Below the pieces are notes generated by a model. That model saw only the letters and a list, made by a program, of their open reading frames with translations. It was not told the DNA's origin and made no database searches. From a virus: a stretch of DNA of 64,000 nucleotides. The DNA lies in the IMG/VR virus record IMGVR_UViG_3300027932_000001, positions 105 to 64,104 of that record. The stretch is one strand, 5' to 3'. Below, piece after piece: positions 33,857 through 34,888 of the stretch (the stretch's first letter is position 1; each line of letters begins with the position of its first letter). A program made the translations under genes and the position numbers.

Positions 33857-34888
33857 TTATTTAATAATCTTTTTCTTCTTAAGCCACGTTGTAACCTCCT
33901 CTCTGTTTATACCTAGTTCTTCTATTATCTTTTCAAATTTAGCTTTATATTTTGCAGTCTTCGTGTCAACGTAATAGTCTGTAATTGGCGATTCAATGAA
34001 ATCTTCGTGCTTCTTGAGGACTTCGTATTCTTTCCCCAACACTACCTTGTAAGCCTCATGTAATGGCACACCTTGCCTATAGTGTAAAGAGATTGCGAAA
34101 TACTGTGATAATAGTAAGGATATTGCTTTCCTGATAGCAGTCCTCTGTACTCTTAGCTTATTCCAGTCTGGATGCTTAGTTGCGATTTCTTCTTTAAATG
34201 ATTTTATTATCTTTGCGTAAACACCGCCAGCTAATATGAGGTTGTTAGCTAAAATTCCTAGCAGAAATGTTTTTACTGTTCTGTTATACTTAACGTTTTT
34301 CGCTGACGTGCCAATAAGTTTCGTCCCATCGTTAGGGCATAACCACCCTTCCTTCGAGGGAATTGCTGGTTTCCCATTCGAGGACTCACCAGCGTAATAG
34401 TAATATCCGCATTTAGAACATGTAAACATTACGGCTAAACCAGCGTACTTCCTGAACTTATTAATGTTATACTGAAACTTTGGTGGATATGCATAAACGA
34501 TAAGTCTAGCACCGTTAACAGCTCCTATCCCCCTAATAAACACCAGGAAGTTAGTAAATTCAGGGAACTTAGTTACCACCTTGCCTATAAGTCCCTTGGC
34601 TATCTCCTCTTGTCTGAGTAGTTCCATGAACCTCTCTATGAGGTCATTAGACGGCGTTTCTTCAACAATTCTCACAGGCTCACCGCATACTGGACATTTA
34701 TCGCGTTTTTCGTCTTCCTTAAGTAATATCATATGACCGTTCTTGCACGCTGTATATCTCCTTAGGAAGACCCACTTATTGTTCTCTTTTTTTGCCCCTA
34801 TCCTGTTCCCAAATGCTACTCTAAGTTTTATTATATCATCTCTGAATGCTACCAAATCTCTTAAAGGAACTAAATCTGCCTCGCTCAT
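33857..34888 (-). CDS. Tas-like (TasA-type) Nop/IS110-related protein without RuvC or HNH, with two Zn-ribbon insertions
   Basis: LRDLVAFRDDIIKLRVAFGNRI coiled coil; FLVFIRGIGAVNGARLI; FRKYAGLA; YNRTVKTFL; RTAIRKAISLL; no N-terminal DEDD domain; CKNGH..CPVC and CSKC..CPND. Confidence 0.8.
   Translation of the reverse strand: MSEADLVPLRDLVAFRDDIIKLRVAFGNRIGAKKENNKWVFLRRYTACKNGHMILLKEDEKRDKCPVCGEPVRIVEETPSNDLIERFMELLRQEEIAKGLIGKVVTKFPEFTNFLVFIRGIGAVNGARLIVYAYPPKFQYNINKFRKYAGLAVMFTCSKCGYYYYAGESSNGKPAIPSKEGWLCPNDGTKLIGTSAKNVKYNRTVKTFLLGILANNLILAGGVYAKIIKSFKEEIATKHPDWNKLRVQRTAIRKAISLLLSQYFAISLHYRQGVPLHEAYKVVLGKEYEVLKKHEDFIESPITDYYVDTKTAKYKAKFEKIIEELGINREEVTTWLKKKKIIK

Follow-up and report, generated by a model that had tools for sequence, protein, structure and literature searches.

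Dual-repeat TIGR-TasA systems, represented by FpTasA of Flavonifractor plautii (Faure et al. 2025, PMC12045711), combine a solo Nop-domain protein with a neighbouring array in which edge and loop repeats of 8-12 nt alternate and enclose 9-nt spacers, and they address DNA in a tandem geometry involving both target strands. The typical TIGR unit comprises 36 nt, with known exceptions, and the array of the Acidianus tailed spindle virus (ATSV) is cited in the same study (ref. 39) as something observed earlier and left unexplained (PMC12045711). The closest solved folds of the protein described here are TaTasR (PDB 9MTY), the wedge loop of which separates the target strands, and SpTasH (PDB 9W03 and 21KL), for which processing of the guide precursor by a Tyr/His dyad was reported (PMC13421893). 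Nuclease-free RNA-guided DNA binding is furthermore known from stem-loop TasA and dead TasR repressors with insertions at tip and wedge (Xu et al., bioRxiv 10.64898/2026.09.09.750476); TasA proteins repress transcription, and a steric block was demonstrated for another TasA in that study. The same report, which mentions neither zinc nor a ribbon, ties large insertions to stem-loop systems, describes dual-repeat Tas proteins as compact, with guides uniformly of 36 nt, and regards most natural targets as not yet determinable. Two main TIGR papers leave open which DNA is targeted in nature and what nuclease-free TasA does.

The locus analyzed here is located in a stretch of 64,000 nucleotides, referred to as the window, that makes up almost all of a virus record of 64.1 kb. 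The nearest relative with an annotation is ATSV (Bicaudaviridae), with about 90% identity over half of a 24-kb test stretch, and the genome is that of an ATSV-like bicaudavirus, an archaeal virus from a hot spring. The tasA gene (33857-34888, minus strand) was confirmed and encodes a protein of 343 amino acids that is composed of a coiled coil, a Nop/Tnp core and a C-terminal extension of about 45 residues. The deduced protein is 88.7% identical to B343 of ATSV (KU645528), which is placed between B45 and an annotated repeat region, and 77.8% identical to a protein of Sulfolobales virus YNP1. These counterparts, annotated merely as hypothetical protein and repeat region, possess the same two metal ribbons and the same 38-nt array as the window, and their spacer content is largely different. 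No tasA homolog was detected in the four host genomes searched.

The original prediction of a Tas-like protein agrees with both fold and profile comparisons. The AlphaFold model (mean pLDDT 91, pTM 0.86) found its best match among 48,161 solved chains in TasR (9mty; VIA Z 16.7, rmsd 2.3, 191 aligned residues), followed by TasH (Z 15.1) and the IS110 protein ISCro4 (Z 11.4), and the Foldseek result was in agreement. A profile of distant homologs matched TasR with an E-value of 2.6e-37 and TasH with 7e-18, and a Pfam search with the single protein yielded no match to Transposase_20 or Nop and weak zinc-finger matches only. The model opens with the coiled-coil helix H3-30, and its alignment to TasR begins at TasR residue 110. 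Since the chain starts at the first coiled-coil helix, it lacks a RuvC or HNH domain, in contrast to TaTasR and SpTasH, and is classified as TasA. The residues Y280 and H294 (34007-34051, minus strand) are invariant in the homolog alignment and correspond to Y289 and H296 of SpTasH at a spacing of 14 instead of 7 residues; they constitute a putative pre-tigRNA processing dyad that is common to TaTasR, SpTasH and the viral protein. Judged by its sequence and predicted structure, the locus is a nuclease-free dual-repeat TIGR-TasA system.

The dual-repeat TIGR array (32790-33859, minus strand) begins in the stop codon of tasA and contains 27 full units and a truncated first one. Each unit of 38 nt consists of a 13-nt edge repeat, the 9-nt spacer A, a 7-nt loop repeat and the 9-nt spacer B, and differs in these dimensions from the FpTasA type; the box motifs UG/CAA and UC/UAA, the two metal ribbons and the C-terminal extension of the protein are further differences. 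An initial U and a final AA occur in the edge as well as the loop repeats (94-100%); the edge repeat displays both expected box C/D pairs, and the loop repeat contains C and U in place of the canonical G-C pair. Arrays were present in 76 of 84 homologous loci, across which 1189 edge spacings of 38 nt were counted. In many of these loci the array begins within a few bases of the tasA stop codon, which points to co-transcription of gene and array. Folding of two units as free RNA revealed no special stability. Transcription of the array from the plus strand was rejected on the basis of the wobble variants (7 to 6 over 205 units) and because only the tas-sense geometry finds targets, which fixes the array strand as the tas-sense strand. 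A link between the ribbons and the 38-nt unit was also rejected, since distant relatives with both ribbons (L014) or with the tip ribbon alone (L015) possess arrays of 36 nt. The 38-nt unit is therefore treated as a variant, that is, as a trait of the ATSV/YNP1 clade that is not caused by the ribbons.

Several minor features of the arrays were recorded as well. Two related units of the window (33483-33521 and 32797-32835) carry a 10-nt spacer A that is partly complementary to spacer B; similar units appear again close to where the arrays end in ATSV and in several further loci. They yielded no target and are possibly structural. The distal array end (32741-32790) comprises an IS200/IS605-like end sequence and a TATA-like box, and IS ends of similar type close the arrays of ATSV and locus L004. 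In all 76 arrays together, 86 A spacers are found with two or more different B spacers, and the converse holds for 96 B spacers, suggesting half-unit exchange or drift. One two-ribbon TasA relative (P0072; L013:640-1698) has an IS605-like element upstream and no array in its immediate flanks.

The natural targets of the guides were searched with about 825 distinct spacer pairs that were pooled from the 76 loci and compared with array-masked DNA. The geometry sought was the published one, spacer A followed by the reverse-complemented spacer B, and shuffled pairings as well as wrong geometries served as controls. An initial search of 590 kb resulted in four exact matches at a central gap of 1 bp, compared with 0.2 expected. 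Several matches of this search fell together in a single plasmid-like part of locus L108, where a gene of the ribbon-helix-helix type and a small ORF accompany an MCM-like helicase related to pSSVi and the fuselloviruses SSV10 and SSV11; these two fuselloviruses yielded 6-7 matches against 0.7 expected. The follow-up set comprised 116 kb of helicase-plasmid loci that were selected by homology to this first hot spot, with L108 itself excluded. It provided four exact and 20 one-mismatch matches at a 1-bp gap and ten exact and 34 one-mismatch matches at a 2-bp gap, the shuffled means being about 0.2 and 4.5 (maxima 3 and 11). The 14 exact matches, compared with 0.4 in the shuffled controls, represent 14 different sites, and antisense and same-strand geometries remained at background level in this set. 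Enrichment was confined to spacer A plus reverse-complemented spacer B with a central gap of 1-2 bp between 8-nt cores, corresponding to a site of 17-18 bp. Since this geometry requires spacer B to be inverted, the matches are not explained by array DNA that was copied into plasmids.

A classification of the matches revealed 52 in helicase plasmids against 4.8 expected, four against 0.8 in pSSVi and ten against 4.3 in the conjugative plasmid pYN01. The latter and SMV4 were only mildly above background, and SMV3, pAH1, AFV1, YNP1 and ATSV were at background level as targets. In total, 46 of 58 matches fall into the copG-ORF-helicase operon, spacer A reads the coding strand in a ratio of 41:13, and most matches are located inside genes and not at promoters. 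Targets were found for about 7% of the spacer pairs. Four of the 27 guides of the window itself have a match, each with one mismatch and none exact, compared with a shuffled mean of 0.35 and a maximum of 2 in 200 shufflings. One guide unit (33788-33825, minus strand) matches the 3' end of SSV-type integrase genes in SSV8 and several helicase plasmids with one mismatch in 16 positions, and another (32989-33026, minus strand) matches the helicase gene of SSV10 and SSV11, likewise with one mismatch in 16. The remaining two are consecutive units (33522-33597, minus strand) that each match a copG/ORF56-type gene of a pSSVi-like plasmid with one mismatch, and their sites (L202:9431 and 9449) are adjacent, 18 bp apart. 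On statistical grounds, these data demonstrate that the predicted guides match replication genes of pSSVi-like helicase/integrase plasmids and of Yellowstone fuselloviruses.

Additional observations concern individual elements. In locus L108 (L108:1-3584), tasA and array are joined directly to a pSSVi-like replication operon, and the spacers of this locus match its relatives better than itself; from this neighborhood, the system may also ride on plasmids of the targeted type. Exact spacer-pair matches were detected in a plasmid-regulator gene of pYN01 (L214:3375), by a spacer that is among the most widely shared, and in the integrase gene of STIV (L216:2932). Scans of IMG/VR for the plasmid helicase returned none. 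The window moreover contains a Cas-less mini-CRISPR array (30015-30305) that is annotated in ATSV too. Its spacer 1 (30043-30075) matches L208:2262 in 24 of the first 28 bases (blastn E-value 0.002). This position, on a plasmid of the helicase family that the TIGR guides hit, lies within a few bases of one of their target sites.

Two zinc-ribbon-like insertions had been proposed in the original prediction, and both were recovered at positions that correspond one to one with the tip and the wedge of TaTasR and SpTasH. The tip insertion (34649-34798, minus strand; residues 31-80) interrupts the coiled coil as proposed, between the helices H3-30 and H81-105 of the model, and its ligands are arranged as C48-x3-H52...C65-x2-C68. 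Query residue 81 is aligned with TasR residue 140, and the tip of TaTasR consists of R139-D141. The wedge-loop insertion (34289-34441, minus strand; residues 150-200) directly follows the YAGL motif, and G150 is aligned with G210 of TaTasR, the first residue of the wedge loop. The proposed position of this second module accordingly holds, and its ligands (C157-x2-C160...C184-P-x-D187) are three Cys and one Asp and not four Cys. Each insertion covers about 50 residues with metal ligands, as compared with 3 residues at the tip and 21 at the wedge of TaTasR.

In the close homologs (63-100% identity), of which 69-71 cover the ligand positions, none of the eight ligands varies, and C48, C65 and C68 are also invariant in 17 distant relatives. 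Distant relatives sharing 24-37% identity keep the tip ribbon; some of them also have the wedge ribbon, usually with four Cys, and others lack it. The model contains hairpins at both ribbons with C-H-C-C and C-C-C-D ligand sets. At the tip ribbon, a profile search matched a zinc-ribbon region of RNA polymerase (E-value 4e-4). The isolated wedge model is all-beta and matched mostly zinc-ribbon or rubredoxin-type folds with low Z scores of 2 to 3.8, including the best hit, the TFIIE-alpha zinc finger (Z 3.8, rmsd 3.5, 49 aligned residues); feature-based searches with the two inserts gave scores under 0.8 only. The invariant ligands along with the zinc-ribbon-type matches make it likely that the ribbons bind zinc, and iron, as in rubredoxin, may also be the ribbon metal.

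Taken together, the locus probably represents a dual-repeat TIGR-TasA system of an ATSV-like bicaudavirus that is used against competing mobile elements by non-cutting silencing. According to this model, tasA and the array would be co-transcribed, and a TasA dimer, by homology to SpTasH, would cut the precursor via Y280 and H294 into 38-nt guides with two spacers each. Within a site of 17-18 bp, spacers A and B would each pair with a different DNA strand, a geometry that the matches demonstrate, and the matched sites lie mainly in the operon for copy control, ORF and helicase and in the integrase gene of pSSVi-like integrative plasmids and Yellowstone fuselloviruses. Since a nuclease is lacking, the complex most likely stays on the DNA and, by analogy with other TasA proteins, would block transcription or replication of the rival. 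The ribbons most likely extend the coiled-coil tip and the strand-separating wedge as elements stabilised by zinc; they would make the protein more rigid at high temperature and provide further contacts to DNA, and a small partner protein would not be needed.

Systems of this type are known, and the array of ATSV had already been noticed (PMC12045711); new are the 38-nt guide units and the natural targets of the guides, including sites of 17 bp besides those of 18 bp, and the targets weigh more in this respect than the ribbons. The word zinc is missing in the main text and part of the supplements of Faure et al. as well as in the main texts of two later preprints, a literature search combining tigRNA and zinc found no relevant study, and no prior description of the ribbons, the 38-nt unit or the natural targets was found in the openly accessible texts. 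The published picture of dual-repeat Tas proteins as compact, with guides uniformly of 36 nt, does not fit the present system. The protein would be an RNA-guided DNA binder that is compact and probably stable to heat. For this clade, dozens of target sites have statistical support, in elements that are named and can be cultivated (pSSVi, SSV8, SSV10 and SSV11), and the host group is accessible to genetic tools, so that the role of TIGR-TasA in the competition of mobile elements becomes directly testable. The paired spacers and targets also provide a handle on spacer acquisition. More tentatively, the archaeal-virus clade with two ribbons and 38-nt guides might be an adaptive anti-satellite weapon that is still acquiring spacers from pSSVi-like plasmids and fuselloviruses, with the adjacent units and sites, the 41:13 strand bias and the mixture of 17- and 18-bp sites as acquisition footprints, and with a function of the wedge ribbon beyond the steric block.

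With the same targets, the ribbons could instead dock a host or viral enzyme in trans, such as a nuclease, a helicase or a chromatin factor, with an outcome beyond a roadblock. The wedge loop of SpTasH is indeed part of the HNH docking surface (PMC13421893), and the wedge ribbon of the ATSV clade contains many invariant residues that are not ligands. However, no gene is conserved beside tasA across the loci, several relatives lack the wedge ribbon, and the length and sequence of the loop vary among the relatives that possess it. Docking of such a partner is the main alternative reading of the ribbons, but we consider it unlikely.

Silencing on the DNA of rival elements is also to be preferred over the assumption that the system mainly silences host genes, for example those of defence, or regulates the genes of the virus itself, which appears even less probable. 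About 90% of the spacers have no identified target and the chromosomal scan covered 1.2 Mb of one possible host, which leaves some room for such a role. The matches in this Acidianus chromosome, which is about half of one and may not be that of the host, nevertheless equalled the shuffled expectation (121 against 120). The virus genome itself contained nine matches compared with 6.8 expected, and none of the spacers of the window matches its own genome within one mismatch. The conserved terminal unit has no exact site in 47 Sulfolobaceae genomes.

The 45-aa ORF upstream of tasA (34895-35032, minus strand), a homolog of ATSV B45, had been put forward as a translationally linked accessory subunit. 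Its stop codon is located 6 nt before the start codon of tasA, and homologs are found upstream of tasA in three loci with visible context, which is the appeal of this assignment. The genomic comparison does not sustain it, since homologs occur in only three of 64 other loci with sufficient flanking sequence, namely ATSV and two close relatives, and are missing in the remaining 61. Elsewhere, the position upstream of tasA is occupied by unrelated genes, another small gene or an intergenic TATA-like stretch, and in the loci L003-L006 a gene of 130 aa without relation to the ORF likewise lies 6 nt from tasA. A database search returned three homologs of the 45-aa ORF in total, along with a weak similarity to D-63 of SSV1 (E-value 0.007), and where the ORF is present it travels with a C212-like gene of ATSV-like viruses. 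Accordingly, it is regarded as an operon neighbour and not as a conserved part of the system, and a function as accessory subunit of the TasA complex is very unlikely.

The second insertion had furthermore been assigned to the position of the IS110 serine loop, and this mapping proved correct, as a ribbon-poor profile aligned the G150 spot with the IS621 segment that carries its catalytic serine. The idea that the insertions replace catalysis, by contrast, is not borne out: the wedge loops of the nuclease-active proteins TaTasR and SpTasH likewise lack the IS110 serine motif, so that no catalysis was left at the wedge for the ribbons to replace, the Tyr/His dyad is kept, and the wedge ribbon is optional, being present or missing among tip-ribbon relatives with ordinary 36-nt arrays either way. 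The bridge recombinases IS621 and ISCro4 share the coiled coil and the Tnp fold with the viral TasA, but the N-terminal DEDD/RuvC domain, a conserved serine motif and element ends are missing here, and a multi-guide array takes the place of the single bridge RNA; in line with the earlier view, the protein does not belong to the IS110 transposases. That the gene stems from an IS110 transposase by decay or splitting, or that the Cys3-Asp module hides a catalytic site, can practically be dismissed despite the common fold, the residue S158 at the serine-equivalent position (G+8) and the invariance of S169 and D187, because none of 71 homologs contains a DEDD domain, the protein is closer to TasR and TasH than to IS110, tasA is followed by an array in 76 of the 84 loci, S158 is replaced by Pro in 67 of the 71 homologs and distant relatives have Cys at the position of D187 and lack the serines.

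Two further features of the virus genome were noted. An FkbM-type methyltransferase gene, in the window as well as in ATSV, has a one-mismatch match (26183-26199 in the window) to spacers of L008, L059 and relatives, hinting at virus-versus-virus targeting, although the genome as a whole is not above background. Between the C212-like gene and the 45-aa ORF, an ISH3-type insertion sequence (35091-36304) that is missing in ATSV and L047 was identified; it comprises DUF4322 and a DDE transposase, terminal inverted repeats and a 4-bp duplication and is nested inside an IS605-like mini element of about 45 bp. Inserted immediately ahead of the 45-aa ORF, this element may cut tasA off from transcription that comes from upstream and may disturb expression in this genome.
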